Shown piece by piece: positions 26,022 to 56,100 of a stretch of 64,000 bases of DNA. The first letter of the stretch is position 1; every line of letters begins with the position of its first letter. The stretch is from Planctomycetota bacterium (GTDB taxonomy: Bacteria > Planctomycetota > UBA8108 > JACQVS01). The DNA lies in the NCBI GenBank assembly GCA_016209605.1, contig JACQVS010000106.1:74274-138273 (forward strand). The letters run 5' to 3'. The notes under the pieces are model-generated. The model was given only the letters and a program-made list of their open reading frames with translations. It was not told where the DNA came from and did not search any database. Position numbers and translations under genes: made by a program.

Positions 26022-29000
26022 ATGAGGACATGGTCTCGTTCTCTTGTTTCGCTGACCATCCGGATCTCCCTATGGCTTGCCCCGGCTTCTCCAGTCTTTG
26101 GTGAGGCCACCTTCTTCATTCGCGGCGATTCCAACACCGACGGGGAGGTTGATATCTCTGACCCCATCTTCACCCTTGGCTTCTTATTCCTCGGCAATCC
26201 AACCGATTTGGACTGTATGGATGCCGCAGATTTTAACGATGACGGCGATGTAGACGTTTCTGACGCCATCTGTATTCTCGAGTTCCGGTTCCTCGGGTTC
26301 TGCTTCCCACCGCCTCCGGTTCTCCAGTGCGGGAGCGACCTGACGGGGGACGATGACCTGGGGTGCGCCCTTTACCCGGATTGCTTCGAAAACCTGCCCC
26401 CTCCGCCGCCGACGTTCCTCGGCACGGTTCCGCCCTCGCCGGCGAACGACAACAACCCCGAGATCCGCGGCCAAGCCGAGCCGGGTTCGACGGTCCGCCT
26501 CTACACCACGCCCGACTGCTCCGGCCCCGCGGCCGCAACCGGCTCCGCCGACCTGTTCGCCGCCGCCGGGATCACTGTGACCGTCCCGGACAACTCGACG
26601 ACGACGTTCCACGCGACGGCGACGGACGGGGCGGGCAACGTCTCCCCCTGCTCGCCGACGGGCATCACCTATGTGGAGGACTCCGGCGGCGGCCCGTGCC
26701 TGAACCTGGTCGGCCCGGCCGATGCGCCCGCGATCGGCCACATACCAACTCTTGGCTTCCCGCCGCCGGACCCCGCCGAGTTCGAGTCCCTCAACGACGC
26801 GCTGGCTTCCCGAACGACGATCCTGCTGATCCCCAGCGAGGCCGCCACCGTGGGCGAGGCCAATGCGCTCCTCGCCTCGATCGACGCCTGCGTCATCGGC
26901 GGCATCCCGGGCTTCGACCTCCTGCTGGCGCGCTTACCGGCGGATACCACGATTGACCAGATGCTCGACGCCGTCAACACGCTGGAGGCCGACCCCCGAG
27001 TCGCGGCGGTCGTCATGGACCTGGGGGGCATGCAAAAACAGCAACTTCCGCCGCACAACGCTTCTCCGGGCCTATGGACCTGGGAGGTCGCAACGCCGCC
27101 AACGAACGGGAACTACGGGCTGAAACTGATCCGCGCGCCGCAGATGTGGAACCTCGATACCCATGTGCGCAGACACCGCGCTGCCAACACGATCTGCGCG
27201 GGAGTGGTCGAGCCGGCGCCGGCGCCGGATACGAACCATCCCGGCGGCGAACTCCTGTTTGATGCCGGCACGGCGGACGGCGACGACGATCACGCCACGA
27301 TGGTCTCGGGGATCATCGCCGCCCGCTGGGACAACGGCGTTGGGGTCGAGGGGGTCGCCCCCGGCGCGGTCCGTGGCGCGGCTGCGCCCGCCGGAGCGCC
27401 GGCTCCATGGGTGACGCGTCTCTACGGGCGACCCAATGGGGAAATACCCGACATCGGCGCTACCGAGGCTGCCACGTACACCGCCCTCGGCAATGTCCTC
27501 GACGCTGATGCGTGCGTGAAAGTGGTGAACCACAGCTACGGGTGGCTCAGCCCCCCAGCTTGTTCCCCTCCTTCATTGGGCGTCATGAACCAAGCGGGCA
27601 CGCTGCTCAGCACGGCCTGCGACCACTGGCTCGCCAATCATCCCGGCCGCGACTTCATTATCATCTCTGCCGCTGGCAACTGCGGGCCAGGAACCTTCAC
27701 GAGTCTGAACAGTGCGCCGAGCAACGCGGCCGGTCGGTTCGCCGGCCGTTTCTTCAACGTCGAGGCGATCAACAACGCGAATGCCGCAGCGGACTTTACA
27801 AGCCTCGGGGGATCCGTCTCGGCCCCCGGCTGGTGTATCGACAGCACGGAGTCGCCGGGGGCTGATCACGACGACCCGGCGTGCCCCTGGACAGCCGCAA
27901 GCGGGCGCTACGCGGTCGCAAGCGGCACGTCCTTCGCGGCCCCCCACGTTACCGGCCTGATCGCCGCCCTCTGGAAACTCGACCCCGCCCTCAGCGTGAC
28001 GGACATCCGATCCCTTGTCACCGGCGCCAACTACACGGTGAACACCAGCGGGGGCACCCAGCCCCGAATCGACGCGTTCGCGGCCGCGATGGGCATCGAC
28101 CTGCTCCGGGGCAACAGGACGATGCAGACCGCCCTGGTCGACGTCGACGACGGTTCGCTCCTGGACGGGAACGCCCGGATCGACGCCGACGACGAGGATG
28201 GGGACGGGGACGCGACCGAGGAGTACGACGGCGCGCATGTCGCGGGCCTCATCGACTCGATCAACCGCGCCGACCGCCTCCGCGGGGACGGCGCCATCAC
28301 CATGAAGGACTTCCGCGTGTTCCGGGATGCCGTGCTGCAGGTCCTGGTCGAGGAGGGCGCGCTGGCGCCGGCATTCATGTCGCTCGACGGGGCGCCGGCC
28401 CACTTCAAGAAGGACCTCAACTTCGACGGCTGCGTCTTCATTCCCGGCGCCGGGCCCGCGCCTGCCGCGCCCGGGCACCCCGGCGGCACCGTGCCGGCCG
28501 CGGCCTGCGGCGCCGACGCGCCGCGGGAGGGGGTCTACGCCCGCTACGACTTCAACGGGAGCGGCACGATGGAGCCGCACGGCGTCTTCCGCAGCCCGCC
28601 GCCCACCGGCGTCGCCCCGTTCAAGATCGACCCCGACATCGTGTGCTCGGGGCTTTACAGCGCTGGCGGTGGCGGCTGCTGGCGCGACCTCGACGTGCTG
28701 GTCGATCCGGCCTTCTGGATGGGCCACCTGGACGAAGAACACATCACGGCGAGCCGGACGGCCGACAGCCCGGGCGAGTGCGTCCGCGGCGCGGGGTGGA
28801 TGCCGCCATACGCTCTTCTCCTGGACCGCAACGTCGATGGCGTCGTTGATTACTTCGCCTCCGCCGACCTCCACTTCATCTTCGGTCCCGACGCGACAGG
28901 TGACTACGACAACGTCTTCATCAACGTCGTCCACGTCGACCCCCCCCCGGCTGGGACGTTCGGCCGGTGCATCCACCTGAACGGGCCGCGCGCCGGCAAG

Positions 29001-29156
29001 ATTCGCACGATCCTGACCGTGCCGCTTCCGCTGTCCCGCACCGTGCGCGTGATCATTGACGTCTGGGACGATGACGAGCCCTTCGTTCCGACCATCCACG
29101 GCGAAGATGACATCACTCTCAAGTTGGGGGAGGATCGAACCTTCACCTGGCCGTAG
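26022..29156 (+). CDS. Secreted multidomain S8 subtilase: signal peptide, dockerin-like pair + Cys tail, bacterial Ig-like domain, peptidase S8, long acidic C-terminal region
   Basis: I place the start at ATG 26022 (GGAGG RBS; MRTWSRSLVSLTIRISLWLAPASPVFG). Dockerin-like FIRGDSNTDGEVDISD...ADFNDDGDVDVSDAI. Ig-like GQAEPGSTVRLY...ATDGAGNVS. His box DDHATMVSGIIAA, Asn VVNHSYGW, Ser box GTSFAAPHVTGLIAALW. Confidence 0.85.
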   Translation: MRTWSRSLVSLTIRISLWLAPASPVFGEATFFIRGDSNTDGEVDISDPIFTLGFLFLGNPTDLDCMDAADFNDDGDVDVSDAICILEFRFLGFCFPPPPVLQCGSDLTGDDDLGCALYPDCFENLPPPPPTFLGTVPPSPANDNNPEIRGQAEPGSTVRLYTTPDCSGPAAATGSADLFAAAGITVTVPDNSTTTFHATATDGAGNVSPCSPTGITYVEDSGGGPCLNLVGPADAPAIGHIPTLGFPPPDPAEFESLNDALASRTTILLIPSEAATVGEANALLASIDACVIGGIPGFDLLLARLPADTTIDQMLDAVNTLEADPRVAAVVMDLGGMQKQQLPPHNASPGLWTWEVATPPTNGNYGLKLIRAPQMWNLDTHVRRHRAANTICAGVVEPAPAPDTNHPGGELLFDAGTADGDDDHATMVSGIIAARWDNGVGVEGVAPGAVRGAAAPAGAPAPWVTRLYGRPNGEIPDIGATEAATYTALGNVLDADACVKVVNHSYGWLSPPACSPPSLGVMNQAGTLLSTACDHWLANHPGRDFIIISAAGNCGPGTFTSLNSAPSNAAGRFAGRFFNVEAINNANAAADFTSLGGSVSAPGWCIDSTESPGADHDDPACPWTAASGRYAVASGTSFAAPHVTGLIAALWKLDPALSVTDIRSLVTGANYTVNTSGGTQPRIDAFAAAMGIDLLRGNRTMQTALVDVDDGSLLDGNARIDADDEDGDGDATEEYDGAHVAGLIDSINRADRLRGDGAITMKDFRVFRDAVLQVLVEEGALAPAFMSLDGAPAHFKKDLNFDGCVFIPGAGPAPAAPGHPGGTVPAAACGADAPREGVYARYDFNGSGTMEPHGVFRSPPPTGVAPFKIDPDIVCSGLYSAGGGGCWRDLDVLVDPAFWMGHLDEEHITASRTADSPGECVRGAGWMPPYALLLDRNVDGVVDYFASADLHFIFGPDATGDYDNVFINVVHVDPPPAGTFGRCIHLNGPRAGKIRTILTVPLPLSRTVRVIIDVWDDDEPFVPTIHGEDDITLKLGEDRTFTWP

Positions 29157-29258: not shown

Positions 29259-32200
29259 TCAGCCCCTTTCTGCCACCTGCCTGGCCGCCCCCAGGAGCTG
29301 GATCTTGACGTCATAGAGCTGGTCCCAGAACGAGTTTTCGTGTTCTGGGCCTTTTTCTGGACCTTTTTCTGGGCCGGTTTTTGGGGCGGAGCTCTCGGAC
29401 TCGTCCTTGACCAGGAATTTCTCCCGGACCAGCCGGGCATCTTCCTGCGCCAGGAGGTTCAGGGCGCTGGCGATTGACTGGCGGCGGTCTCCGGTCAGCC
29501 AGTTGGCCCGGCGATCCGGCGACTGGAACTCCCTGGCGAGAAGCTTCTTCCCGAGGCTGAACTCCCGGAGGGCCTCCTGGGCCCGGCCGAGGTTCTGGAA
29601 GCAGTTTCCCAGCTGGTACTGGATCCAGAGGATCAGCGGCGAATCCGCCAGAAGGGTAGCCGCCTTCTGATATTCTTCCAAGGACCGGGAGAACTGGCTC
29701 AGCTGGAAGGAGGCGTCCGCCTTGGCGAGCCAGGCAGCATGGATCAAGTGCCGCACCTCCTGCTGATCCTCCGGGAACAGGTTCCTCAGGAGGGAGGATT
29801 TTTCCAGCTCGGCGAGCTGCTCGAACCAGCCGCGGGCCTCTTCCCACTGCCTGGCGCGGGAGGCGAGGTTGCCCAGGAGAAAGAGAGCCATGGGCACCCA
29901 TTGGGAAGCCGGCGCCCCTTCCGAAGCCAGGACCAGGCGCTCGAGGATCTCGCGGGCCTCCTTTCGGCGGGAAGGCTCCGGACTGGCGGCCGCGGCCGGC
30001 GGCCGCGCGGCTTCCACCTCCTCCGCCTGGCGGCAAAGCTGGTAGCCGCGGATGAACATGGCGCTTTGCCAGACGGGATGGCGGTTGCCGAAGTGCTCGC
30101 AGAGGAAAATGAGGTTGTTCCTCGCTTCCGCATCCAGCCGGCGTCTTTCCAGATTTTGCAGGATCTCCAGGGCGGTCGGGCCGTTTTTCTCCAGCCATTT
30201 CAGGACCAGGTCTTCATTGATCCCGCCAAGCCGTGCTTGGAGGTGTGAATCCTGATGCCGGAGGAGAGCCACGGCGCCGTCTGCGCTGTCAAGCCGGCCC
30301 TTCAGCTCGCTGGTCAGCTGGCGCTTCTGGAGCATGAATTCTCCCTGGACGTTTTTGGCCCCTTTCTGGCTCTGGCCTTCCAGCTCTTCCTCCCAGGCAT
30401 CGACGGCGTCCTGAAGCCGCTTCTTCAAGCTTTCACCGAGTTCCGGGATCTGGTAGGAGTCCAGGAAAAGTTTTTCGAGGATTTCACGGATGCCGGCCTG
30501 GACAACCGCGTCCCCCTCCGGCAGCATATGTTTCCTGATGAAGTCGGCGGCGGTGAGCGTTTCCCCGAACGGCGCCGAGCTCCGCACTCTTTGCACCTGC
30601 GCGATGGAGCGCCATAAATAGGCTTCGGCCGTCTCGGCCGGGAAGTCCCTCTGGGCGATGCGGATCTCCCAGATCCGGCTGTCCGGCGGTATCTGGCCGC
30701 CATCTCGAGACAATTTTACCGTCAAGATCAGCGCCTTCCGCGGATCATCGCCCGAGACCAGGCGAATCCGGTCTCCTTCGACGACCATGACTTCCGGGCC
30801 GGGATTGCGGTCGCCTGGAGACAGCCAGCGCAGCGTGTGATTTTTGGAATCGAAGAATAGCTGCCCTGTTCCGGTGCGGTTGGCCGGATCGACCACCGGA
30901 TCGAGCTCCAGCCAAGCCGTCAAGTCATCCGGCAGGAGAATCGGGTAATGCGCCCCCAGCGCGAAGGGCCGGTCCAGCTCCTCGGTGGGCAGGTCGACCC
31001 CCCAGTAAATCTGAATCAGGCGGTTGAGCGTTTGAATCCCCTTTTGATACTCCCCCACTTGAACCAGAGCCTTGCCGATGGCCAGGAACAGATCTCTTTC
31101 CGTGGAAGGGATTTTTCCGATATCCAATTCAATGGCTTTCAAAATGCCGACCGGATCGCCGCTTTCCTCAAATGCCGCGACCGCCTCCTTGAGGAGCGAA
31201 ATGTCCTGGGAAGATCGGTTGAAGCTTTCGGTGAAGAGCTCCGCTGCTTGCTGCCAATCGAGGCGAGCGTTCTCGCGCCCTGCATCTTCCTGGATGGCGC
31301 GGGCCCTGTCCCGGTAAACCATGGCCTTCTGGCGGAGGATCTGCGGCCCTTTGGGCTGGCGCTGGATGCGGCCGATCCAGCGGAGGCAATCCAGGGTTTC
31401 TTCATAATTTCCTCGCTGCAAATGATCTTGAAAACTGCGCACCAGATGGTTTTTCAAATCCAGCCAGACGCGCTCGAGGAAGTAGCTGGGGCGATCTTGA
31501 GATTCGAGCTGCCCCAGAATTTCCATGAGCAGCTTGTCATTGTTCTGGAAGGTGGTCCAGGCTGGATCGGGATCCATCAACTGCCCGCCGGCCCGGACGC
31601 CAAATAGCCCGACTCCCGCAGCCACCGCCACCTCCGGATTGAAGTCGGCGCGCCGTTGATAGAGCTTGCGAAACTCCTCCTCGGCGGCCCGGATGTGCTG
31701 CCGGACCTTGGCCTGCCCTTTGGTCATGCGGTCCAGCTCTTGAACCAGGGTGTTGAGGAAGCCGCGGTCGATCTCCTTCGGGATTTTTTCCCGATTGAGC
31801 AGCTTCTGCAGCACCTGCCACGCTTCCAGCATCAAACCGCGGTTCTTGAGCAGAATCGAGCGGAGCAGCTCGACATAAAACTGCTGCGGCTCGTCCTCTA
31901 TGAAAAACTCCATCTGCCGGATGGTTTTTTCCAGTTTGGCCGCTTCCCCCAGCTCCTCATAAATCCTCCCCACGCGAAAAAGCGTGGGGAGGATGGGAGG
32001 CGGCCCCGGCGCCTGGCCCGCGGCCAGGCTTTCGAACCAGCGCCGGTCATCGGCATGCAAGGATCCCGGATGGTCCTTCAAAAACTTCAAGATGGACTGG
32101 TTCAAGATGGAGTGGGCCTCGCGGTCGCTTTTGTCCTTGTCGCCGCGCTCCCCAGAAGGGTTGGCGGAGGCGCTCGGCGGCAGGCGCCGAGCCTCGAGAA

Positions 32201-33368
32201 GCCGGCCCAGCGCCAGGAAAAGCGGTTTTTCCCTCTGGGAGCCGCCGAAATAGTCCCGCAGCACGAGGATGAAGTCTTCTTGAAAATCCAGCTCGAAGTA
32301 ATGCCGGAGAAGCCTCAGCTTGAGGCGGAGGCGGGCCGGCTCGGACTGGATTTTGAACAAATATGCCGGCCGGCCTTGCCGGTAAGCCTGCAAAGCGGCT
32401 TCATGATGGGCGACGGCACGCCAATAAAGCCCCAGCTGCGCCAGGTAACCGGGCACTGATGGCAGTTCCTGGTATTGCTCGGGAACACCGCTTTTCGCCA
32501 GAAACTGGGTCAGCTCTTCAACCGCTTTCTCGGCGTCGCCCTGATGGAGAGAAAAGATCCCCTGGAGGAGAGGGATTTTTCGGTCCGGATCGGTCTTGAG
32601 AAACTGCTGAATTTCCTCGTCGTCATCCGGATTCAATGCCTCCAGCGCGCTGGCATCGGAGGCTTGCGGCGGCACCTTCCTGCCGATCCTCGCCATCAAG
32701 TCTGCCCGCAAAACCACGTACCGTTCTCGGTCAGCGGCCATCTCCCAGTGCTCGCGCACCTTGTTGAACTTGATCTGGCGCAGCGAGTCCAGAGCCTCCG
32801 GAACCTTGCCGGCCAGCTCTTCGAGCTGGGCCCGGTCCCAGAGCAGCAGGCCGATCTGGCTTTTTCCTCTGGCGGAAGCGCCGAAGAACTCCCTCAAGAG
32901 CTTGTCGGCAATCCAGGACTGCTGCTCCGGGGAGCACAAGCTCTGGTCTCTGAGGAGTTCCAAATTCCCTTTTTGAAGGTTGATCAAGCTGCGATGGCGG
33001 AGCGCGGACAAAGATTGAGAGAGGATCTTCCGCACCTCCCAATTGTCGGAGTCGAAGATGGTTTTCCAGAAGGAATAGCCCAAATTGAGGAGGCCTTCAG
33101 CGCCCGCATCGGCAAGGGGCCGCTCCGCGAACTTCTTCGCCAGCGGCTCGATCAGAGCCGTCTGCCCCAGAAGGTCATGCTGCGCGGCCAAGCTTCTAAC
33201 CGCTTTCTCGACCACGATGAAATCGCTGCTCCCCAGATCCTCAAGGATCGCATCGAAGCGCCTCTGCAGCTGCGCCTGAGGATTGCCGCGTTTGACGATG
33301 AGAATAGGAAGCCCGACGGCGGCTCCCACGAGAAGGGCGGCGCCACCGAGCAGGAGCCATTTTTTCAT
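29259..33368 (-). CDS. 1369-aa N-terminally membrane-anchored all-helical (TPR/HEAT-like) repeat protein, function unknown
   Basis: N-terminal TM (MKKWLLLGGAALLVGAAVGLPILIV), then long helical-repeat sequence with many A/L/E/R-rich pairs of helices. 20 nt downstream of the MerR-like gene. Confidence 0.75.
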   Translation of the reverse strand: MKKWLLLGGAALLVGAAVGLPILIVKRGNPQAQLQRRFDAILEDLGSSDFIVVEKAVRSLAAQHDLLGQTALIEPLAKKFAERPLADAGAEGLLNLGYSFWKTIFDSDNWEVRKILSQSLSALRHRSLINLQKGNLELLRDQSLCSPEQQSWIADKLLREFFGASARGKSQIGLLLWDRAQLEELAGKVPEALDSLRQIKFNKVREHWEMAADRERYVVLRADLMARIGRKVPPQASDASALEALNPDDDEEIQQFLKTDPDRKIPLLQGIFSLHQGDAEKAVEELTQFLAKSGVPEQYQELPSVPGYLAQLGLYWRAVAHHEAALQAYRQGRPAYLFKIQSEPARLRLKLRLLRHYFELDFQEDFILVLRDYFGGSQREKPLFLALGRLLEARRLPPSASANPSGERGDKDKSDREAHSILNQSILKFLKDHPGSLHADDRRWFESLAAGQAPGPPPILPTLFRVGRIYEELGEAAKLEKTIRQMEFFIEDEPQQFYVELLRSILLKNRGLMLEAWQVLQKLLNREKIPKEIDRGFLNTLVQELDRMTKGQAKVRQHIRAAEEEFRKLYQRRADFNPEVAVAAGVGLFGVRAGGQLMDPDPAWTTFQNNDKLLMEILGQLESQDRPSYFLERVWLDLKNHLVRSFQDHLQRGNYEETLDCLRWIGRIQRQPKGPQILRQKAMVYRDRARAIQEDAGRENARLDWQQAAELFTESFNRSSQDISLLKEAVAAFEESGDPVGILKAIELDIGKIPSTERDLFLAIGKALVQVGEYQKGIQTLNRLIQIYWGVDLPTEELDRPFALGAHYPILLPDDLTAWLELDPVVDPANRTGTGQLFFDSKNHTLRWLSPGDRNPGPEVMVVEGDRIRLVSGDDPRKALILTVKLSRDGGQIPPDSRIWEIRIAQRDFPAETAEAYLWRSIAQVQRVRSSAPFGETLTAADFIRKHMLPEGDAVVQAGIREILEKLFLDSYQIPELGESLKKRLQDAVDAWEEELEGQSQKGAKNVQGEFMLQKRQLTSELKGRLDSADGAVALLRHQDSHLQARLGGINEDLVLKWLEKNGPTALEILQNLERRRLDAEARNNLIFLCEHFGNRHPVWQSAMFIRGYQLCRQAEEVEAARPPAAAASPEPSRRKEAREILERLVLASEGAPASQWVPMALFLLGNLASRARQWEEARGWFEQLAELEKSSLLRNLFPEDQQEVRHLIHAAWLAKADASFQLSQFSRSLEEYQKAATLLADSPLILWIQYQLGNCFQNLGRAQEALREFSLGKKLLAREFQSPDRRANWLTGDRRQSIASALNLLAQEDARLVREKFLVKDESESSAPKTGPEKGPEKGPEHENSFWDQLYDVKIQLLGAARQVAERG

Positions 33369-33387
33369 TGCCCTGAATCATTCCCGG

Positions 33388-39740: not shown

Positions 39741-39777
39741 GGATCCAGCCTCTTGAATTCCTTATTTTGGTCGCAAA

Positions 39778-45542: not shown

Positions 45543-48500
45543 TTAATTGGCACAAGGGGGATAATTGGCGCAGCCGAGGTCTTGTGGGGAGCCTGGCGAA
45601 TCGGGATCGGACCCGCAGGGCTCGCCCGGCGGACCGGGATCGGCCGGCGGCGTCCCCCCGAGGAACGTGAACTTCAAGATGGTGACGCCATCGGAGATGT
45701 CGAGGGCGCCATCATTATTGGCATCGGCGGCTTCCCTGCAGGCGGGGCCCGGATCGCCAAGAAAGAGATGCCGCAAGAGCACCACCGCATCGGTGACTTC
45801 CAGGGCGCCGCTCGAGTCCACATCCGCCCTATGGAAGAGGGGCGCTTCAACTCCTCCGGGCTGAGGCGGGATTTCAGGCCCGGAGATGGAATTGGGGCGG
45901 CCAGGGCTTCCCTGGCGAGCCGATGCCCCCCAGGACCCTGGCAAGCGGTTATCGCTCCGCGAGTCGATGAGCTCAAGGCTCGGCCCGCCCCCATCGGCCT
46001 CCTCTGGCCAGGGCGGATCATCCCCGTAAGCGACGCTGTCCATCAGCCGGCCGGCCTCATCCCACAAGGAGATGGTGTCGCCGCCGTTTGCAAGGAAAAA
46101 GGGCAGGTCCGTTCCGGCCACCTGGACGATGTTGTAATACTCGAAGACCGCCCGAGTGTTCCTCGAGAGAACGAGGAAGCCGTCAGGCTCAATGAGCGTT
46201 CCCTCTGGAAAAACATACTCCGCGGCGACGCTCGCGACCTTCAGCTTCCACCCGGAGAGATCCATGGTCCGGTGGAGGTTGTTCTTGAGCTCGATAAACT
46301 CGATGTCGTAGTACCGCGCCCGGTACATGATCTCGTTCACCACCACATCGCCCGGGACCGGAGGGCCGCTCTTCACATCCAACGCCAAGTACTCAAAGCC
46401 GTGGCGCCCGGGATCGGGCAGGAAGCCCTCGCGTCCTTTATCGTCGCGGGCGGAAAAGCAGTAAAAGAGCCGCGCCTCTTTGTGGAGAGGCGGGATGGCG
46501 ACCGCATAAAAATCGTGGATCCTGGAGTCGACCGCGGCCATATCCACGGCCGACTCCTCGCCGCCCTGAAGGAAGTGCAGCTTCACTGACACCAGGTTGC
46601 TGGGCCCGAGGTCATAAGTGCCATCGTAGCGGCTGCCGAGGGCGTTGGCGGTGAAGGTCAAGGCATCGCCGGGCCCGGCGGGCTGCGGCCCCACGGAGGC
46701 CTGGGAGAGAAGCGGCTCCCGGTCGAGGAACTCGGCCAGATATTTCCTCCGGCTGCTGACATAGACTTTGTCGAAGCGGGCATGGAAAGAAAAGCCCTTC
46801 CAGTTCCAGCTCGTGTCAAGCGCGTTCCACTTGTCGACGTCCATTTGCGCCTCCTCGCCATCGGTCTTCTGGATGCGGTCGATGACCGGCTGGATCTCCG
46901 TCTCCGTGAAGTAAGTGACCAGGGCTTCGGCCAGGGTGTCCTTGAGCTGGTCCCTGAACTCCGGAACGCCAAGGTAAGCGCTTCGCAGGGCGCTGACCAT
47001 GAACTCTTGAGGCTCCGGGTTGAGCGTCGAGCCATCGTAGGGGTGGAGGTTGTGGCCCTGGGCGGGCGGCGGCTTGCGGCGGCTGTAGCCCCACGTGATG
47101 TCCATGTCCCAGGGGAAGCGCACCCAGCGGTTGCCGTTGAGCTCATCCTGGTAGAAATAGTAGTTCTGCGAGGTGCTGTCCCAGTGGGTCGAAAGGATGA
47201 TGGCGGCGAGGTAGCGGCGGTAAAGCTCCAGATGGACGTTGTTTTCCAGGAATCCCTTGGTGCCCGTGCCTCCGCCCTCCGAGAGCGAGACGATGTATTC
47301 CACCCGGTGCCACTCCCCGACCTGCCAGCGGAACTGGCCCGACTCGTTGATCCAGCGGATGCCGGCGTTGACGAGATGCAGCCCTTCGCTGCTCGAGTTC
47401 AAGTAACGCAAGGATGGGCAGAGGGTGCCGCTGAAGGCGTGGCCCGGCGGATCCCCCAAGAATAGCCCCGCTCCGGCCCAGTTGTCCCCGGTCTTCTGGC
47501 TGGTGATGCGGACATCGTAGGTGACGGTGATGGGCCGTTTGGAAAAATCGATGATGCCGGGCCGGGCAAGGCGGTGGTGAGAAGCTCTCAGAGGGGAGAC
47601 GAGGCGGATGGCGCCGCCGGCTTCCCAGGTCCCCTCGACTCCGGTCCAATCGTCAATGGCCTCCCCGTTTTCAACCAGCAGGTTGCAGGAATTGGGAGCG
47701 CTGCTTTGGTCGGCGATGCAGATCCCATCGAACTCCGCCAGGCAATTGTAAGCGATCAGGCCGATCGAGGCCCGCTTGGTGTTGAACTCGCTGAGCCCGA
47801 GCTGGGTGAAGGTCGGAAGAGCCGGCCGGACCCCGCCGTCCCGCTTCCAGATCCGGCCGGCGACCATCATCGTCCCCGGGGTGTCCGACGACGAGCCGGC
47901 CAGCCCTTCGACGAAGTTCCGGATGCTGGAGTAATCGGCGCGGTCGTTGCTTTGCTTCTCATAAGCGCTGGAGTAAGAGGGGACCGGGTAGTTGTGAGCG
48001 GAGGCCGTGCGGCCATGCTTGTAGAGGTCGCCGAGCCCGGTGAAGCCGTTTCGCTCCAAGAAAGTCTCATCGATCGCCTCCACCTCCACATGCCAGCCGA
48101 AAAAGCTGTCATTGACCATCAGGCGGATGAAGCGCGTTCTGGAGGAGGGAACGCCGGCGCGGTCGAAGGTCAGATAGCAAAGCTTGTCCTTCAAGCCGTT
48201 GTCGCCCCGCTGGTAGGGATCATCCCAGTGCATGTTCCCCTGAATGACCAGGACCTCGCGCCCCTGGTAGCGGTCCCAGTCGGGAAACTCCAGGCGCCAG
48301 GAGTACTTCAGCCGTCCGGCGTGCCGGCTGGCGAAGCCGCCGCGGTGGCGGATGGCCACCTTGCGGTGCACCCGGCCATCGAGGACGGCGAAACCTGGAA
48401 AGGCGTCATCGAAATGAGGGTAGCGCGGGTCTCCCGGGCTCCGGATCTGGGCATTGTCATCGAGGATCTTGAGTTTTTCCGGGGAAAGGAAGATCAAGAT

Positions 48501-49502
48501 GATGGGAGCCGGCGTGTCGATGCTCCCGCCGTCTACAAACCAGGCGTAAAAGTCCGATTCATCGCCGGCGGGCGGAAAGGGACGCTCGGCCCCTCGATCA
48601 TCGACAAGGATGACCTTGAACTTGGCGAGGGTGCGGTCAGGAAGCGGTTCCACGGCCACGGTGTATTTCCCATCGGCCGCTTTCGAGTCCGGCCACGCCC
48701 CGTCGTCGCGCATGGCGTGGTCGCTAGCAAAATTGTTGAGGAAGAGGCGGAGGGTGATGGCCTGGAGCGGGATCTCTGAAAAAACCTGGGCGCTCACCTT
48801 CACCTGATCCGCGGGCGTGACCGCCGTGGGGTTGACTCTGACATCGTAGGCCATGGGAGGAAGGGCCGCGGCGCTGGAACGGTTGGGGGCGCCGGGCGTC
48901 GGCGGCCGGCCAGGTCCCCAGTTGCCGGGAAAGTCGTGAGGCGCCGCCGGCTTGATCAACTCCAGCGCTGCTCCTTCTCCATCCGCCTCCTGGGGCCAGT
49001 CTTCGTTGTCGTTGTACTCCACTTGATCGACGACGGCCCCCTTGGAATCGGCCAGGAAGATCTTCTCCCCCGAGTTGCTCAACTTCCCTTCGTAAATCCC
49101 CGCCAGGTTGATCCCGGGATAGGTTCTCAAGAATTCATCCCTCGTTGCCGCGACCACGGCGTATTCCGAGGCGCCGAGAACAAAGCCGGCTGGAAAGACG
49201 AAGCGGATTCCGCCGCTCAAGATCCAGCCCGAGAGGTCCGCGGCCTCGCCGCCATTCCAGAGCTCGATGAATTCTTCAACCTCGAGCGATCCGGGGGGGT
49301 TGTAGTGGATCTCGTTAATGATGACCTGGGAGGCGGCAGGCCGGGTCCACAGCAACGCCAGCCCGAGAGCGGCCAGTGCGAGGCCGTGAATTCCCGTCCC
49401 GCTCCCGCACCTTGCCGCCAGTGGCGTGAAAAATTTCTTTTGAACGATCACGGGCAGGGGAAGCTCTCGCAACTGAACTTTAGAACCTCGACTGATCCGC
49501 AT
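45543..49502 (-). CDS. Secreted LTD - CotH - LTD - dockerin-like/Cys-tail protein (CotH-family atypical kinase)
   Basis: Two lamin-tail domains (VIINEIHYNPPG..EFIELWN; VVVNEIMYRA..EFIELKN). CotH core (KYSWRLEFP..., NYYFYQDELNGNRWVRFPWDMDITWGY). C-terminal FHRADVDSSGALEVTDAV...ADANNDGALDISDGV...CGSD...GCANYPPC. An alternative GTG start at 49451 forms a GTGA overlap with the upstream stop. Confidence 0.85.
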   Translation of the reverse strand: MRISRGSKVQLRELPLPVIVQKKFFTPLAARCGSGTGIHGLALAALGLALLWTRPAASQVIINEIHYNPPGSLEVEEFIELWNGGEAADLSGWILSGGIRFVFPAGFVLGASEYAVVAATRDEFLRTYPGINLAGIYEGKLSNSGEKIFLADSKGAVVDQVEYNDNEDWPQEADGEGAALELIKPAAPHDFPGNWGPGRPPTPGAPNRSSAAALPPMAYDVRVNPTAVTPADQVKVSAQVFSEIPLQAITLRLFLNNFASDHAMRDDGAWPDSKAADGKYTVAVEPLPDRTLAKFKVILVDDRGAERPFPPAGDESDFYAWFVDGGSIDTPAPIILIFLSPEKLKILDDNAQIRSPGDPRYPHFDDAFPGFAVLDGRVHRKVAIRHRGGFASRHAGRLKYSWRLEFPDWDRYQGREVLVIQGNMHWDDPYQRGDNGLKDKLCYLTFDRAGVPSSRTRFIRLMVNDSFFGWHVEVEAIDETFLERNGFTGLGDLYKHGRTASAHNYPVPSYSSAYEKQSNDRADYSSIRNFVEGLAGSSSDTPGTMMVAGRIWKRDGGVRPALPTFTQLGLSEFNTKRASIGLIAYNCLAEFDGICIADQSSAPNSCNLLVENGEAIDDWTGVEGTWEAGGAIRLVSPLRASHHRLARPGIIDFSKRPITVTYDVRITSQKTGDNWAGAGLFLGDPPGHAFSGTLCPSLRYLNSSSEGLHLVNAGIRWINESGQFRWQVGEWHRVEYIVSLSEGGGTGTKGFLENNVHLELYRRYLAAIILSTHWDSTSQNYYFYQDELNGNRWVRFPWDMDITWGYSRRKPPPAQGHNLHPYDGSTLNPEPQEFMVSALRSAYLGVPEFRDQLKDTLAEALVTYFTETEIQPVIDRIQKTDGEEAQMDVDKWNALDTSWNWKGFSFHARFDKVYVSSRRKYLAEFLDREPLLSQASVGPQPAGPGDALTFTANALGSRYDGTYDLGPSNLVSVKLHFLQGGEESAVDMAAVDSRIHDFYAVAIPPLHKEARLFYCFSARDDKGREGFLPDPGRHGFEYLALDVKSGPPVPGDVVVNEIMYRARYYDIEFIELKNNLHRTMDLSGWKLKVASVAAEYVFPEGTLIEPDGFLVLSRNTRAVFEYYNIVQVAGTDLPFFLANGGDTISLWDEAGRLMDSVAYGDDPPWPEEADGGGPSLELIDSRSDNRLPGSWGASARQGSPGRPNSISGPEIPPQPGGVEAPLFHRADVDSSGALEVTDAVVLLRHLFLGDPGPACREAADANNDGALDISDGVTILKFTFLGGTPPADPGPPGEPCGSDPDSPGSPQDLGCANYPPCAN

Positions 49503-52500
49503 TCCGGGAAAGGCGCCGCCGGCGGAGCACCACCCAGGAAGGCGAAGTACAGGTCGATGATGGCGTCCGTTTGATTGATGTTCCCATCCCCGTCCGCATC
49601 CAGCGCTTCCAGGCAGGTTCCAGGAGATCCTCCCAGGAAGGCATAGAGCAGGATGAGGATGGCATCGGTGGCGTTGATCTCTCCGTTGGATTCGACGTCG
49701 CCGCGGCGGAAAAGGTTCCCATCCGGCTTCCCCGCATAAAGCTCGATCTCGTCAAAGACGTTTTGAAGCTGCGTCACCACACGGATGGCGCGCGCCTGGA
49801 CCTGGTTGAAGCCGTAACGGCGCCGCAAGTTGGGAAAGTCGTTTCCAGAGAGGTGGTCCTTGGCCGCGCCCAGAGGCTTCCAGTTCACGGCGGCCACCGC
49901 TTGGTCGCTCGCGTGGTCAAACTCCTCGGCAGCGTACTCGACGATGTGCAAGCCGCCAGCCCGGTCAAACAAGTTTCCCAGGTTGTCTCTCCCCAGCGCG
50001 ATCTCGCCGACGGCGCGGGGGCCGCCGGTGAAATAAATCCCGGCGTAGATCTTGCCGGAGACCGGCCCCGCCTCGGCGCCAAGCCAGCTGTTGTCGTTGC
50101 CGTAAAAACCGTCGTTCAAGTGTGGAATGGAATGCTGCGGCAAGTCGAGGGTCGGCGTTCCAAAGGCGACGGCATCGGCCGCCAGAGCCAGGTTGCCGTT
50201 GGCAAAGAGGGGAACGTCGAAGGGGAGCGCCGGAGTGGAGAACGGCCCCCCAACCTCGAGCAGCGCCAAAGTCTTGAGCCCGGGCGGCGGCTCCACCACC
50301 TCCCCCGCCTCCTCGTACACCTCCAGCTCATCGATGGCCGTCCCCTCTCCCAGTCCGACGGCGGGAACCAGGATCCGCACGGCGGTCGCCTCGACGGCAT
50401 TGAAATTGAAGCGATGGCGCAGCCAGGGGAGCCCGTCGGGAGGAAAAGCGCCAGCGTAGTTGGCGTAACCCACGCTCTTCCACTCTGAAGCCGGTGTGGC
50501 CGCGCCGGCATCCGGGACGGTAGCGACCTGGAGGATGTAAAGGCCCTGGTTGCGGTCAGTGTACTCCTGGGCTTCGCCGCCATTGTCGCGCCCGAAGGCG
50601 ATGCTCCGGATGGTGAACAGCCCTCTGAGGTTGATCCCGGCAAATCCGGGATTGCCGCTCTCGCCGATCCAGCTGTTGGTGTTGCCGTAGAGGCCGTCGT
50701 TGAGATGGGCCGTGATATGGAAGTCGAATCCCGCCAGGGAATCGATGGCGAAGGCCGTCGCCTCCGGCCTCACCGCCAGATCCTTGGCTGGCTCCAGGGA
50801 GCCGCTGAGCTCGACCAGCTTCAGCTCCTCCCCCAGCTCCGAGGTGTCCAGGTAAAGCTCGATCTCATCGAGCGCGTTCCCCTGGCGGGTGATGATCCGC
50901 ACCGCCCGGGCTTGAACCAGATCCAGCCTGTAGAGCCGCCTCAAGCCCGGCCCGGCGGCGCCGAGGTGCCCTTCGGCCTGGCCGACCGCCGTCCAGCGGG
51001 CCGTCTCGATCAAGCCGGGAAGGGTGAAATCGATGAGGCTTTCAGTGACCTGAAGGATGTAGGGCCCCTCCGCCCGCTCGGAAGCTTGGCCGGTATTGTC
51101 CCTCCCCAGAGCGATGCGGTTCACGGCCCTCGGGCGGTCTTGAAAAAAGACCCCGGCATAGACGAGGCTCAGGCCGCCGGCCGGCTGCTCTCCAAGCCAA
51201 CCGCTCGCGTCTCCGTAGAGGCCATCGGCGAGCGCGTCGATCTTGTGAGGATCGGCTGTCGGCGAGCCGAAGGCCCTGGCATCGGCGGCTCGAGCCAGGT
51301 TGCCGGCCTCCGCGCCCGGAACATCCCCTGGGGCCGCGGGAGTCGCACCCGGGCCGCCGGTCTGAAGAAGCTGGAGCGGCGGGAAGGCGGAGCCGCGGTT
51401 CACCACGATCTTCCCGAGTTCGAGCTCGTCAAGGGCGTTCCCAAGAGCGGTGACCACGCGAACGGCGCGGGCGCTCACCGGCGCTGGAAGCCGGTAACGG
51501 CGGCGCAAGTTGGGAGGCGCCTCCTCGAGATGGGCGCGGGCCCGCCCCAGGACTTGCCAGGTCGCGGCGGCGACCTGCGCATCGTCGGTGAAGTCGAACT
51601 CGTCCTGGGTGTACTCGATCAGGTGGGCGCCCGCGGCGCGATCCGCGTACTGGTTCAAGTTGTCGCGGCCAAGGGCGATCTCCTCGATGGTCTTGGCCCC
51701 CCCGGTGAAGTAAATGCCGGCGTAGACCCGGCGGCTCGAGAGGCCCTCCTCGTTTCCAAGCCAGCTATTGGGGTTGCCGTAAAGGCCGTCGTTGAGATGG
51801 GGGATGGTGTGGGCCGGATCGGGATAGGGAGGCGTGCCGAAGGCCACCGCATCGGCGGCTCGAGCCAGGTTCCCCTCGGCCAGGGTGGAGACATCCCCGG
51901 GGGAGATCGGGGGATTCACCGAACCCCCTTTCTCGATAAGTTCCAGGTCGGGGAAGAAAGGGCAAGGGTCCCTGTCCTCGCCCGGAATACCGTAAACTTC
52001 CAGTTCATCGATGGCGGTCCCGTCTCCCAGGCCGGCGGCGGGAACCGTGAGGCGCACGCCGGTGGCTTCCACCGGCGCGAAGTTGAAGCGGTGGCGAAGG
52101 TAGGGCTTTTCCGGACAGAGGCCCCCGCCGTAGACCACCTGGCCGATGGCAGTCCAGCTGGCATTGGGGGTGAGGTGGTCGGGATTGTCTGCCGTGGTGA
52201 ACTGCAGGATGTAGCGGCCCCCGGAGCGGTCGGTGTAAACCTGCGCTTCGCCGCCGTTATCGCGGCCGAAGGCGATGCTGGCGATCGGGAAGCGGCCGCC
52301 GAAGTTGATCCCCACGAACAAGCCGGTCTGGCCGATCCAGCTGTTCGAGTTGCCGTAGATCCCATCGTTCAGGTGAGGGATGTTGTGGATCGTCTCAAAG
52401 CCGGCAAGGGAATCCGGGGCGAAGGCAGCGGCTCCAGGGCCCGCGGCCAGGTTGTCGGCGGCGAACTCGCCCCCCTCCTCCACCAACTGCAGGTCCGCCA

Positions 52501-53128
52501 GAGGGGGGAGGACGCAGTTTTCGGCGAGGACTTCGCCGGCAGCCTCGTAGATCTCGATCTCGTCAATGGCGGTGCCGAGGCCCAGGCCGGTTCCCGGGAC
52601 GATCAAGCGGATGCCGGTCGCCGCCACCGGGGAGAAGTTGAAGCGGTGCCGGAGCCAAGGGGAGGGGGGGCACAATCCATCGTAGAAGACTTCGCCGATG
52701 GTGACCCAGTCCGGGTTTGGAGTCGCCGCGCCCGGCGAGGGCGCCTGAGTGTACTGCAGCACGTAACGGCCCTGATTGCGGTCGGTGTACTCCAGGGCCT
52801 CGCCGCCGTTATCGCGGCCGAAGGCGATGCTGGCGATGGTGAAGCTCCCCCCCAGGCTGAGGCCGGCAAAGCCGGGATTGCCGGTATTGCCGATCCAACT
52901 GTTGGTGTTGCCATAAATCCCATCGTTCAAGCGCTCGATCCGGTGGACATCAAAGCCGATGTCGGCGAGCGCATCGATGGCAAAGGGAACGGCTTGGGGG
53001 CCGGTGGCGAGATTGTTGGGACCGAAGGCACCGCCCACCTCGACCAGAGCCAGTTGCGCCTCGAGGCGGGCAGATGCCAAGGACGCTAGCAGAATTGAAA
53101 AAGCTAACGGTTTGAGCAGCGGCTGCAT
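49448..53128 (-). CDS. Secreted giant repeat protein A: six ~170-180-aa discoidin-like modules (order I-I-II-II-I-II) + dockerin-like/Cys-tail
   Basis: I place the start at ATG 53128 (GAAGGAG RBS; MQPLLKPLAFSILLASLASARLEAQ). Each module carries HLNDG(I/L/F)YGN.NSW(I/L)G and ...FGRDN.... C-terminal FRRGDVESNGEINATDAI...LDADGDGNINQTDAI...ECGS...SCESFPCP. Confidence 0.8.
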   Translation of the reverse strand: MQPLLKPLAFSILLASLASARLEAQLALVEVGGAFGPNNLATGPQAVPFAIDALADIGFDVHRIERLNDGIYGNTNSWIGNTGNPGFAGLSLGGSFTIASIAFGRDNGGEALEYTDRNQGRYVLQYTQAPSPGAATPNPDWVTIGEVFYDGLCPPSPWLRHRFNFSPVAATGIRLIVPGTGLGLGTAIDEIEIYEAAGEVLAENCVLPPLADLQLVEEGGEFAADNLAAGPGAAAFAPDSLAGFETIHNIPHLNDGIYGNSNSWIGQTGLFVGINFGGRFPIASIAFGRDNGGEAQVYTDRSGGRYILQFTTADNPDHLTPNASWTAIGQVVYGGGLCPEKPYLRHRFNFAPVEATGVRLTVPAAGLGDGTAIDELEVYGIPGEDRDPCPFFPDLELIEKGGSVNPPISPGDVSTLAEGNLARAADAVAFGTPPYPDPAHTIPHLNDGLYGNPNSWLGNEEGLSSRRVYAGIYFTGGAKTIEEIALGRDNLNQYADRAAGAHLIEYTQDEFDFTDDAQVAAATWQVLGRARAHLEEAPPNLRRRYRLPAPVSARAVRVVTALGNALDELELGKIVVNRGSAFPPLQLLQTGGPGATPAAPGDVPGAEAGNLARAADARAFGSPTADPHKIDALADGLYGDASGWLGEQPAGGLSLVYAGVFFQDRPRAVNRIALGRDNTGQASERAEGPYILQVTESLIDFTLPGLIETARWTAVGQAEGHLGAAGPGLRRLYRLDLVQARAVRIITRQGNALDEIELYLDTSELGEELKLVELSGSLEPAKDLAVRPEATAFAIDSLAGFDFHITAHLNDGLYGNTNSWIGESGNPGFAGINLRGLFTIRSIAFGRDNGGEAQEYTDRNQGLYILQVATVPDAGAATPASEWKSVGYANYAGAFPPDGLPWLRHRFNFNAVEATAVRILVPAVGLGEGTAIDELEVYEEAGEVVEPPPGLKTLALLEVGGPFSTPALPFDVPLFANGNLALAADAVAFGTPTLDLPQHSIPHLNDGFYGNDNSWLGAEAGPVSGKIYAGIYFTGGPRAVGEIALGRDNLGNLFDRAGGLHIVEYAAEEFDHASDQAVAAVNWKPLGAAKDHLSGNDFPNLRRRYGFNQVQARAIRVVTQLQNVFDEIELYAGKPDGNLFRRGDVESNGEINATDAILILLYAFLGGSPGTCLEALDADGDGNINQTDAIIDLYFAFLGGAPPAAPFPECGSVEVLKFSCESFPCP

Positions 53129-53168
53129 GGCTTCTCCTTCATGATCTAGGGCCGTGGTTCTTGAAAAA

Positions 53169-56100
53169 TCATGGACAACCCACGTTTCCGCCGCAGCGGG
53201 CGATCTCAGGCACGAGGAGGCATCCCGCTCCCTGGACCGGCGGGGGGCCTCCGGTAAAGAGGTGCCGCGCCAGGAAGAGGATCTCCGGGATATCCACCTG
53301 ATTGTTCCCGTCGAGATCAAGAACCATCAAATTGCCGGGACTCGTCAGGTCATCGCCGCCGCAGGGGGAATCCACCCCCGAGCGGTCGAGGATGAAGAAG
53401 CCGCGGAACTTCAAGCGGAGGATGCACACGATGTCGGTCACATCGCGCCTCCCATCCTGGTTGCAGTCGCCGGCAAGCTGGTAGCGCGGCTCAAAGAGCT
53501 CGATCTCGTCGATGGCGTTCTGGCCCTCGGTGAGGACGCGGATAGCGCGGGCGCTGAGGAGATCGAAGCGGTAGCGATGGCGGAGGTGAGCCATCCCATC
53601 GGTGAGGTGGGCCTGAGCCAGGCCCACGGGAATCCAGTTGGCGGCGTCGGTGGCCCCATCAGCCGCCGGATCGAAGGTATCCAGGGTGTACTGGACCAGA
53701 TAAGGCCCGGCGGCGCGGTCCAGGAACTGGCTCAGATTGTCGCGGCCCAAGGCAATGCCATGGATCTGCCGGGGGCCGCCGGAGAAATAAACGCCGGCAT
53801 AGACTTTTTGAGACGTCGGCCCGGGCTCGTTGCCGAGCCAGCTGTTGGAGTTGCCGTAGAGGCCGTCATTGAGATGCGGGATGGTGTGGGCAGGGTGCGG
53901 AAAGGGCGGCGTGCCGAATGCCACGGCATCGGGAGCCCGTGCCGCGTTCCCATCCTCGAAGGTGGGGACATCGCCCGCCGCGGCCGGCGTCGCCAGGGGG
54001 CCGCCGGTCTGGACCAGCTCGAGGGGCACTGGGACGACGCATTCCAGGCTCCCCGCCCCCGGATAGTTGTAGGCCTCGAGTTCATCGATCGCGGTGCCTG
54101 CAGCCAGGCCGGTTGCCGGCACGATCAGCCGGATGCCGGTCGCCTCAACGGCTGGAAAGTTGTAGCGATGGCGCAGGAACGAGCTTGGCGGGCAAAAGCT
54201 GTTGACGTCGATCTGGCCGATGGTGATCCAGTCGCAATCCGGCGTGGTGGCGCCGGGCGCGCTCGCCGTGGTGTACTGGAGGATGTAGAGCCCGGTGGCC
54301 CGGTCGGTGAAGGTTTGGGCTTCGCCGCCATTGTCGCGGCCAAAAGCGATGCTCACCACCGTCCCCGGGCCGCCAAAGGCAATGCCGGCAATGCCGGGAT
54401 TGCCGGTGTTGCCGATCCAGCTGTTGGTGTTGCCGTAGAGGCCATCGTTCAAGTGCTCGATCCGGTGGTTGTCAAAGCCAATGTCGGCCAGCGCGTCGAT
54501 GGCGAAGGCGAGCGCTCCCGCGGTTGACAGATTCTTGGCGTCGAAAGTTCCCCCAACTTCGGACAAGACAATTTCACCGACCACGGGATCCAGAAGCTCG
54601 AGCTCGTCAATGACGTTTCCAAGGGCGGTCAAGACCCGCACCGCACGCGCTTGAATCCCGCCGAGGCAGTAAACGTGGCGGAACGCCGCCAAGCCATCGC
54701 TCAGGTGTGCTGTGGCTTCGCCCACCGTCCGCCAGTTGGCGGCGTCGGTGGCCGCGTCGCTGGCAGGGTCGAACTCATCCAGGGTGAACTGGACCAGGTA
54801 AGTGCCAACCGCCCGGTCGCCGAAGGTCCCGGTGTTATCCCGCCCCAAGGCGAGGTTGCGGATCCTCCTGACCCCATCGGTGAAGTAAATTCCCGCGTAA
54901 ACTTTCCCCGAGGCCGGCCCCGGCTCGTTGCCGAGCCAGCTGTTCGAGTTGCCGTAAAAGCCATCGTTCAAGTGCGGGATGGTGTGGGCAGGGTGCGGAA
55001 AGGGCGGCGTCCCGAAAGCCACGGCGTCCGGGGCGCGGGCGACGTTTCTCAACGCCAGGCTGGGGACATCGGTCGGCAGCGCCGGGGTGGTCACCGGCCC
55101 GCCGGTTTCCACGAGCGGCAAGACTGGAGGAGGCGGCGCGCCGATTTGCATCCCCAGCTCGAGCTCATCGATGACGTTTCCCAGAACGGTCAGGATGCGG
55201 ACCGCTCTGGCGGAGACCTGGCTGAAACTGTAGAGGCGGCGCAAGGGGGAAGGGGTCGTACAGAGCGCGGCAAATCCAATCGCCGTCCAGGCGGCGGCGT
55301 CCACCGCGGCGTCGTTCGATGGATCGAACGCATCCTGGGTGTACTGGATCGTGTAAATGCCGTCAATGCGGTCGCCAAAGGCGCCGAGGTTGTCGCGCCC
55401 GAAGGCGATTTGCGCCAGGTCCTTCAAGCCGTCATTGAAATAAATCCCGGCGTAAACCTTTCCCGAGGCCGCCCCGGGCTCGATCCCGAGCCAGCTGTTG
55501 GAGTTGCCGTAGAGGCCGTCGTTGAGGTGCGGGATGGTGTGAGCCGGCGCTGGAAAGGGCGGCGTTCCGAAGGCGATGGCATCGGCGCCGCGGGCGAGGT
55601 TGCCATCCGCGAGAGCGGGAACGTCTCCGGCTAGGGCCGGGGTGGTCAAGGGGCCTCCGGTCGCGAGGGGCGCCAGCAGCGTCGGGGGAGGTGTGGCGGT
55701 GACCGCCCCCGACGCGGCGTAGATCTCGATCTCGTCAATGGCCGTGCCCGCAGGCAGCCCGGTCGCGGGGACGAGCAGGCGCACCCCGGTCGCTTCAATC
55801 GGCGGGAAGTTGTAGCGGTGGCGCAGCCAGGGGGTGGAATCGGGAAAGACGCAGTTGTAATTCAGCTCACCGATTGCGGTCCAGTCGGAATCGGGAGTCG
55901 CGGCAGACGGGGAGGCCACCTGCGTGTACTGGAGGACATACCGCCCGGCGGTGCGGTCCATGAAGGTCTGCTCCTCGCCGCCGTTGTCGCGGCCGAAGGC
56001 CAAGCTGGCCACCGTCTTCAAGCCGCCGAGGCTGATACCGGCGATCCCCGGGCTGCCGGTCAAACCGATCCAGCTGTTGGTGTTGCCGTAAATCCCATCG

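Follow-up and report, generated by a model that had tools for sequence, protein, structure and literature searches.

The DNA analysed here is a 64,000-nucleotide stretch (the window; GC content about 62%) of contig JACQVS010000106.1 from a Planctomycetota bacterium (assembly GCA_016209605.1), and exactly four of the proteins that it encodes carry a shared unit of about 90-105 amino acids (aa). This unit, in which two EF-hand-like calcium loops are followed by a cysteine-bearing tail, is a type-I-like bacterial dockerin with, on its sequence and a predicted model, a dockerin fold. The four proteins, all of which have N-terminal signal peptides, are an S8 (subtilase) protease, a CotH protein with lamin-tail domains (LTD) and two repeat proteins, RepA and RepB. 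Sequencing runs SRR12113390 and SRR12113401 contain the sequence too. The units and genes of the four proteins are as follows.

26109-26384, plus strand: dockerin unit 1, S8 protease, residues 30-121, straight after the signal peptide
45546-45842, minus strand: dockerin unit 2, LTD/CotH protein, residues 1221-1319 (last 99 aa)
49451-49717, minus strand: dockerin unit 3, RepA, residues 1138-1226 (last 89 aa)
53172-53486, minus strand: dockerin unit 4 (divergent), RepB, residues 938-1042 (last 105 aa)
26022-29156, plus strand: S8 (subtilase) protease gene, 1044 aa; Pfam Peptidase_S8, E = 7.6e-20
45543-49502, minus strand: LTD-CotH-LTD protein, 1319 aa as the longest open reading frame (ORF); Pfam CotH, E = 4.7e-36, and LTD, E = 5.5e-36 (two stretches)
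49448-53128, minus strand: RepA, 1226 aa; from repeat parsing and from AlphaFold2 (AF2) and Foldseek on a repeat
53169-56297, minus strand: RepB, 1042 aa; from repeat parsing, AF2 and Foldseek

In the S8 protease the unit is at the N-terminus, and in the other three proteins it is at the C-terminus. An earlier note, made from the letters of the window, had claimed that the same dockerin-like unit occurs in four exoproteins, and all four copies are indeed present: when a hidden Markov model (HMM) built from three copies was run against the six-frame translation of the window, the copy left out was recovered at E = 4.9e-14 (S8), 1.5e-21 (CotH), 1.7e-17 (RepA) and 1.5e-6 (RepB), such that every copy aligns under a profile comparison at E of 1.5e-6 or better. 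Every other match had E > 1, and the six frames of the window contain no fifth copy. The extents first proposed for the S8 and CotH copies hold with slightly shifted ends; that for RepA (49529-49714) left out the cysteine tail, and that for RepB, starting at 53232, missed the last 20 aa, which contain the tail. The RepB unit is truly divergent: an insert of 19 aa separates its loops, and its cysteines are arranged differently.

The protease is laid out as a signal peptide, the N-terminal dockerin unit, an Ig-like domain (a weak match to Pfam Big_6), the S8 catalytic domain and a C-terminal region of about 330 aa for which no match was found, and its start, MRTWSRS, is confirmed by an independent assembly in which the called gene likewise encodes 1044 aa. 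Beyond the catalytic domain, the C-terminal region (28150-29156, plus strand) contains an acidic run, DADDEDGDGD, and the D-x-D/N-G-like motifs RGDGAITMKD and DRNVDGVVD, which may form extra calcium-binding sites and to which the unit HMM gives no score. RepA consists of a signal peptide, six CBM32/discoidin-like repeats and the C-terminal dockerin unit, and RepB of a signal peptide, five such repeats and the divergent C-terminal unit. The repeats are 170-193 aa long, and the AF2 model of one of them (predicted local distance difference test, pLDDT, 73) matches CBM32 and F5/8 type C discoidin modules in Foldseek. Two subtypes of the repeat, neither recognised by Pfam, are interspersed along each protein and do not strictly alternate; the motif HLNDGxYGNxNSW of RepA and RepB recurs in the next gene. 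An HMM of the repeats found no relatives among unit-bearing loci, and the LTD/CotH protein as a query found no close relative in GTDB genomes.

The Pfam model Dockerin_1 (PF00404; gathering threshold 22.9 bits), whose 57 positions end before the tail, gives 35.4 bits on the isolated RepA unit, which passes, 22.1 bits on that of CotH, 17.7 bits on that of RepB, in a match that spans both repeats, and 10.6 bits on that of S8; on whole proteins it gives 29.8 bits for RepA, again above threshold, and 17 bits for the LTD/CotH protein. NCBIfam models returned only a trivial match on the four units, to the dockerin end of a cellobiosidase model. Each unit has two 12-residue calcium loops, DSNTDGEVDISD and DFNDDGDVDVSD in S8, DVDSSGALEVTD and DANNDGALDISD in CotH, DVESNGEINATD and DADGDGNINQTD in RepA, and DCNQDGRRDVTD and DLDGNNQVDIPE in RepB. 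All eight keep acidic or polar ligands (D, N, E or S) at positions 1, 3, 5, 9 and 12, as read from the sequence by standard dockerin/EF-hand numbering; the unit is predicted to depend on calcium.

The CotH unit alone was modelled with AF2, from a 23-sequence alignment, and the model (pLDDT 90.6; predicted template-modelling score, pTM, 0.82) has helices at residues 16-28, 36-39 and 49-59, an arrangement of loop-helix, short linker helix and loop-helix in which a helix follows each loop. When the PDB was searched with this model in Foldseek, the top 29 matches were all dockerins from cohesin-dockerin complexes, with a probability of 0.63-1.0 over 55-79 columns, a target-normalised template-modelling (TM) score of 0.32-0.81 (mostly 0.55-0.81) and a root-mean-square deviation of 1.4-3.2 Å (mostly about 2 Å); the two lowest TM values are those of double-dockerin chains of 139 and 151 residues. 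The dockerin-like pair of the earlier note is therefore borne out by the above-threshold match of RepA and by the likeness of the AF2 model to dockerins. According to the note, a match to a characterised sorting or anchoring domain with a known receptor would count against its reading; this applies in part, as the unit matches the dockerin, whose class of receptor is the cohesin.

The tail is an integral, proline-rich extension of the unit with the consensus PPxPxPxCGxDPTxDxLGCxxYxxC, and no Pfam or NCBIfam model covered it in a scan of the four units. Four cysteines are conserved in the 23-unit alignment, one in the inter-repeat linker (C1) and three in the tail, namely those of the CG motif (C2), of the LGC motif (C3) and of the terminus (C4); the initial description of a three-cysteine unit falls one short, and its own pattern already contained the linker cysteine. 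These residues are C65, C103, C115 and C121 in S8, which has C84 and C94 in addition, 1255, 1296, 1311 and 1317 in CotH, and 1172, 1210, 1220 and 1225 in RepA. The S8, CotH and RepA units fall into the class with all four cysteines, and RepB, with six cysteines and with PCGGDDLTSPGNL in its 19-aa linker insert, is a more cysteine-rich variant similar to the relative P0032.

Cysteine covariation was followed in 395 units from database relatives. The linker and LGC cysteines are both present in 350 units, both missing from 17 and discordant in 28 (odds ratio, OR, 33), and the CG and terminal cysteines are both present in 132, both missing from 235 and discordant in 28 (OR 172). The cross pairs C1-C4, C3-C2 and C3-C4 show no association; C1 and C2 are associated (OR 16, p ~1e-4) because units with the second cysteine pair nearly always have the first as well. 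Two classes dominate: 214 units have just the linker and LGC cysteines, and 126 have all four. This pattern suggests two disulfides, C1-C3 and C2-C4, the first of which would pin the extension onto the linker. In addition, the AF2 model of the CotH unit pairs residues 3-4 of an N-terminal strand with residues 76-77 of the tail, and the extension with its putative disulfides would correspond, in covalent form, to the 'intramolecular clasp' of dockerins. In this clasp, described for Ruminococcus flavefaciens ScaA and other dockerins, residues of the N- and C-termini touch, which stabilises both the calcium-bound dockerin and the surface that binds cohesin (Slutzki et al. 2013, PMC3821032). The predicted pairing of the N-terminal F-x-R strand of the CotH unit with the tail resembles this contact; however, the known clasps involve no covalent bond but Trp-Pro stacking or a salt bridge, whereas the window unit, from the covariation, apparently has one or two disulfides.

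The RepB insert PCGGDDLTSPGNL resembles the tail motif CGxDPTxDxL, and in BLASTP repeat 1 of RepB together with the insert aligns with repeat 2 and the tail of CotH; this arrangement could have arisen by duplication of a 'repeat + tail' half-unit. Many relatives (P0012, P0015-P0017, P0019, P0021, P0029 and P0031) have an extra cysteine pair, one in loop 1 (RGDCN..) and one before loop 2 (..ACDA.DDG), which may form a third disulfide bridging both calcium loops; the three canonical units of the window lack this pair. The dockerins of fungi (Neocallimastigomycota) are likewise cysteine-rich, disulfide-stabilised docking modules on secreted enzymes and were considered for their cysteines only; they have a CBM10-like, unrelated fold without EF-hand loops, and kinship was rejected on account of the fold.

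With a profile of the unit, 45,535 representative clusters are recovered at E <= 1e-3; the number drops to 26,151 at E <= 1e-10 and to 771 at E <= 1e-30. Tail-less dockerins may be among the weaker matches. When GTDB representative genomes were scanned with the consensus unit, the best 80 loci, several of them from the same genome, were taken as a sample. Of these, 64 are labelled Planctomycetota; the Ignavibacteria loci and a Zixiibacteriota locus (L140) match in the dockerin part only (residues 2-65) and a Zixibacteria locus (L144) matches over residues 2-81. The 80 loci contain 150 unit-bearing ORFs, of which 132 have the unit at the C-terminus, 12 at the N-terminus and 6 internally, and the tail is present in 134 of their 165 units. 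Dockerin_1 reaches E <= 1e-4 in 30 of 79 unit-bearing ORFs. The cargo of 79 such ORFs, by Pfam, includes FG-GAP, beta-helix, CarboxypepD_reg, FGE-sulfatase, Peptidase_C25, Peptidase_M14, CotH, LTD, Kazal, Endonuclease_1 and InhA-like MAM domains, and no glycoside hydrolase is among the 25 most frequent of the 58 families matched. The unit thus defines a very large, mainly Planctomycetota dockerin subfamily whose cargo is diverse and non-cellulolytic.

Given that the unit lies at the extreme C-terminus in 132 of these 150 ORFs, as in RepA, RepB and the LTD/CotH protein, and that its tail is covered by no curated model, it could be read as a C-terminal secretion or sorting signal, possibly removed later, in the manner of the C-terminal domains of type IX secretion or of PEP-CTERM and sortase tags. 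This is very unlikely, and the reading was rejected, for several reasons: the unit directly follows the signal peptide of the S8 protease and is N-terminal in 12 of the 150 ORFs; in many relatives it occurs in two to seven copies per protein, alternating with cohesins; and its dockerin fold is confidently predicted. Furthermore, it has no transmembrane or basic tail, all four proteins already possess N-terminal signal peptides, and no sorting-signal model of NCBIfam or Pfam matched the four units.

The best 150 representatives of the profile search each carry more than one unit. Of the segments between their units, 144 of 214 form one family (profile A3), of which some members exceed the Pfam Cohesin (PF00963) threshold (P0059 at 37.6 bits, P0097 at 29.1 bits and an ORF of locus L111 at 25.6 bits), and the A3 profile matches more than 30 solved cohesins in the PDB (best E 2.6e-8); a protein homologue search with the A3 cohesin alignment returned one weak match only. 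Within the 80 loci there are 24 cohesin-bearing ORFs, and all 24 also carry the unit. Cohesin-like proteins were found in seven of the eight Planctomycetota genomes sampled at three or more loci, and later in the eighth, SXIK01, as well. The partner is therefore unseen in the window, and by Pfam in most relatives, but not unknown in kind, as cohesin-like domains are fused to the unit in relatives.

Two of these relatives are close to the window. Locus L162 (GCA_964524535.1) is syntenic with it, with identities of 47% for a FlgN-like protein, 30% for a 933-aa homologue of a 924-aa window protein described below, 48% for a histidine kinase, 59% for a sigma54 regulator, 69% for FliE, 44% for FliF and 57% for FliG. 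Locus L176 belongs to the closest relative available, the uncultured Planctomycetota metagenome-assembled genome (MAG) Mix_sand01.2020.11.D.10 (JBFFXF01), whose FliI is 73% identical to that of the window, the next matches being at about 50%. These loci and L167 encode scaffoldin-like proteins with three to five cysteine-rich cohesin-like repeats and a C-terminal cysteine-tailed dockerin.

L162, 2762-6505, minus strand: 1247-aa secreted protein, five cysteine-rich cohesin-like repeats and a C-terminal cysteine-tailed unit, about 3.5 kb from the 933-aa gene
L167, 2992-6798: scaffoldin-like protein of the same type
L176, 4771-6783: protein of about 670 aa, signal peptide, two clear and one marginal cohesin-like domains (domain E 8.9e-13, 9e-7 and 0.011) and a unit; a second unit-bearing gene adjoins it

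Pfam Cohesin has no match at E <= 0.01 in any of the nine cohesin-like proteins scanned from loci L162-L176 and detects five of the roughly 12 scanned overall. Since Pfam misses most of these proteins, earlier calls of 'no cohesin' are unreliable.

The best explanation, to which a probability of about 0.65 is assigned, is that the units work as dockerins in a non-cellulolytic cohesin-dockerin system, with the cohesin genes located beyond the window. By analogy with the relatives, in which it alternates with cohesin-like domains, the unit would bind a cohesin, and a scaffoldin is probably encoded in this organism's own genome. Several observations weigh against this reading. First, three of the four window units score below the Pfam dockerin threshold; these three are tied to the RepA unit by the leave-one-out HMM, at E of 1.5e-6 to 1.5e-21. 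Second, as the earlier note had also observed, there is no cohesin in the window: Pfam found none in 40 ORFs that are likely genes, and two custom cohesin HMMs found nothing better than E = 0.5 in all six frames. That this genome encodes a partner is therefore an extrapolation from its relatives. Third, the cohesin assignment of the cysteine-rich repeats of L162 and L176 is transitive: the repeats of L162, L167 and L176 have no Pfam or direct PDB match to cohesin and are linked to it by hhalign of profile A3 against profile A6 (probability 98.5%, E 1.6e-15) and by a custom HMM (E 3.7e-41 and 3.4e-22). Finally, the odds ratios of 33 and 172 for the cysteine pairs ignore the relatedness of the units.

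The second of these points is shared by the main rival, in which the unit is an orphan dockerin with no cohesin partner here, serving as a calcium-dependent stabilising or adhesion module for another ligand, for example a cell-envelope glycan or another surface protein, so that what unites the four proteins would be a property, not a scaffold. Besides the absence of a cohesin from 64 kb, this is consistent with the 126 of 150 unit-bearing ORFs that lack a cohesin and with the presence of one nearby at only 20 of the 80 sampled loci. Nevertheless, an orphan role is considered unlikely, although less so than any other rival, given the cohesin-like proteins of the seven multiply sampled genomes, to which SXIK01 was later added, the one encoded by the closest relative, and the blindness of Pfam to nine of nine such proteins at L162-L176 and to all but five of about 12 overall.

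A different partner had been proposed in the earlier note, which named two large unknown proteins as candidates. The genes concerned are the following.

22507-25281, minus strand: 924-aa secreted protein, first candidate partner
25290-25805, minus strand: FlgN-like gene, 171 aa, upstream of the 924-aa gene; Pfam FlgN, E = 4.8e-6
29259-33368, minus strand: 1369-aa protein, second candidate partner

Either protein might act as a non-cohesin receptor; their proximity to the protease gene is the only positional argument for this, and the 924-aa protein has, in addition, a signal peptide and weak beta-sandwich (NEW3-like) matches. Neither candidacy survived comparison with the cohesin profile, as hhalign gives a probability of 0.1% for the 924-aa protein and 0.08% for the 1369-aa protein, which starts with a hydrophobic stretch and has Pfam matches to sub-threshold tetratricopeptide repeat (TPR) families only. 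Moreover, in L162 (9534-12802) the counterparts of the 924-aa protein and the FlgN-like protein lie beside the histidine kinase, the sigma54 regulator and FliE-FliI, with leuS as the other neighbour and without an S8 protease or dockerin protein. Because this pair is conserved beside the flagellar cluster, the 924-aa protein belongs with the flagellar block, which suggests that it is an uncharacterised flagellum-associated secreted protein, and a role for either neighbour as the receptor is the least credible of the readings considered.

The remaining features of the window are as follows.

1-22129, minus strand: flagellar gene cluster
38365-40623, minus strand: FliL, MotB and MotA, apart from the main flagellar cluster
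40820-45307, minus strand: Ser/Thr protein kinase, 1495 aa, with AAA_16 and TPR regions
56386-59268, minus strand: 960-aa protein with an F5/8 type C domain and without a dockerin, adjoining RepB
59295-62315, minus strand: Ser/Thr protein kinase, 1006 aa

The flagellar cluster comprises FlhA (partial), FlhB, FliR, FliQ, FliP, FliO, FliN, FlgE, FlgD, FliK, FliJ, FliI, FliH, FliG, FliF, FliE and a rod protein. A sigma54-dependent response regulator and a histidine kinase come after it. The two large kinases, of 1495 and 1006 aa, flank the dockerin gene cluster. The 960-aa protein has a hydrazine-synthase-alpha-like middle domain (PF18582, E = 8e-21) and two CxxCH haem-binding motifs near its C-terminus.

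Peer and colleagues are said to have described, in 2009, dockerin-like modules in many genomes without a detectable cohesin, which would fit the orphan reading, and non-cellulosomal dockerins and cohesins reportedly occur across bacteria and archaea according to the same authors. To our knowledge, surveys of such noncellulosomal modules relied on recognisable cohesins. The window resembles these systems in having dockerins on non-cellulolytic secreted proteins and in a putative pairing that would join unrelated enzymes, and differs in that the cohesin-like partners of its type of unit are mostly missed by Pfam; cohesin-dockerin pairs of Clostridium perfringens toxin complexes are also mentioned by Slutzki et al. 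(PMC3821032). With the type I dockerins of clostridial and ruminococcal cellulosomes (PF00404; PDB 4fl4, 4uyq and 2vn6) the unit shares two tandem repeats, about 22 residues long, that each combine a 12-residue EF-hand-like calcium loop with a helix, as well as the predicted fold, a terminal position on unrelated secreted proteins and the co-occurrence of cohesin-type modules in relatives. It differs from them in its conserved extension of about 25-35 aa with three cysteines, plus the linker cysteine, in its Planctomycetota host, in its cargo of a protease, a CotH protein and lectin-like arrays, and in that most unit-bearing relatives fall below the Pfam threshold. The suggestion that a targeting unit on unrelated secreted proteins follows a cellulosome-like logic remains the best reading; however, the cargo here is non-cellulolytic, as the S8 protease, the CotH/LTD protein and the CBM32-like arrays are not plant-cell-wall-degrading enzymes, and in contrast to the cellulosome no cohesin scaffoldin is encoded in the 64-kb window, although relatives have such proteins.

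The closest precedent is the 'planctosome', which the passages on dockerins and cohesins in Andrei et al. (ISME J 2019, PMC6461901) present as a hypothesised non-cellulosomal cohesin-dockerin complex of Planctomycetes, composed of peptidases that bear dockerins, a lamin-tail-domain protein and an adaptor with both a dockerin and a cohesin, and drawn from domain annotation alone, in one freshwater family (Nemodlikiaceae) with M12B and M14 peptidases. The present finding fits this hypothesis: on the account given in those passages, the window likewise has a dockerin-bearing LTD protein and a peptidase, and its relatives have dockerin-plus-cohesin adaptors. The differences, within the same passages, are that the window cargo adds CotH and CBM32 arrays, that the family spans many Planctomycetota MAGs, and that these passages mention neither a cysteine-tailed extension nor Pfam-invisible cohesins. 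No experimental follow-up of the planctosome was found in the searchable literature, nor was any description of the cysteine-clasped extension or of the Pfam-invisible cohesin-like repeats. In summary, the unit does not represent a new type of tag but a variant, so far poorly annotated, of an assembly system that is already known. Module and assembly logic are familiar; it is the disulfide-tailed subfamily, its size and its putative pairing with divergent cohesin-like domains that appear not to have been described.

Planctomycetota are abundant degraders of complex organic matter with large secretomes. If the units do act as dockerins of a cohesin-dockerin system, the four proteins would be exported by way of their N-terminal signal peptides, after which the binding of calcium by the two EF-hand-like loops would allow the module to fold. 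Disulfides between the linker and LGC cysteines and between the CG and terminal cysteines would then pin the extension to the module as a covalent clasp, and the dockerin would plug into divergent cohesin-like modules on adaptors or scaffolds that bear the same dockerin. In this way the S8 protease, the CotH-family protein and the lectin-like CBM32 arrays of RepA and RepB would be brought together in an extracellular, non-cellulolytic complex.

Were the pairing not real, the window would contribute four more non-cellulosomal dockerins to an already known phenomenon. If it is real, it would give concrete, testable components to the so far purely bioinformatic planctosome idea and would explain why the dockerins of Planctomycetota look partnerless, given that Pfam misses most of the cohesin-like proteins scanned and that under half of the units reach E <= 1e-4. 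It would also supply a naturally disulfide-stabilised dockerin, a possible oxidation-tolerant docking tag. On a wider scale, the chances are evenly balanced that Planctomycetota possess a phylum-wide extracellular assembly system of disulfide-clasped dockerins and divergent cohesin-like modules, in which case many annotated 'orphan dockerins' in their genomes would not be orphans. In such a system, two-module adaptors could chain head-to-tail and recruit proteases, CotH-family proteins, lectin arrays and many uncharacterised proteins.

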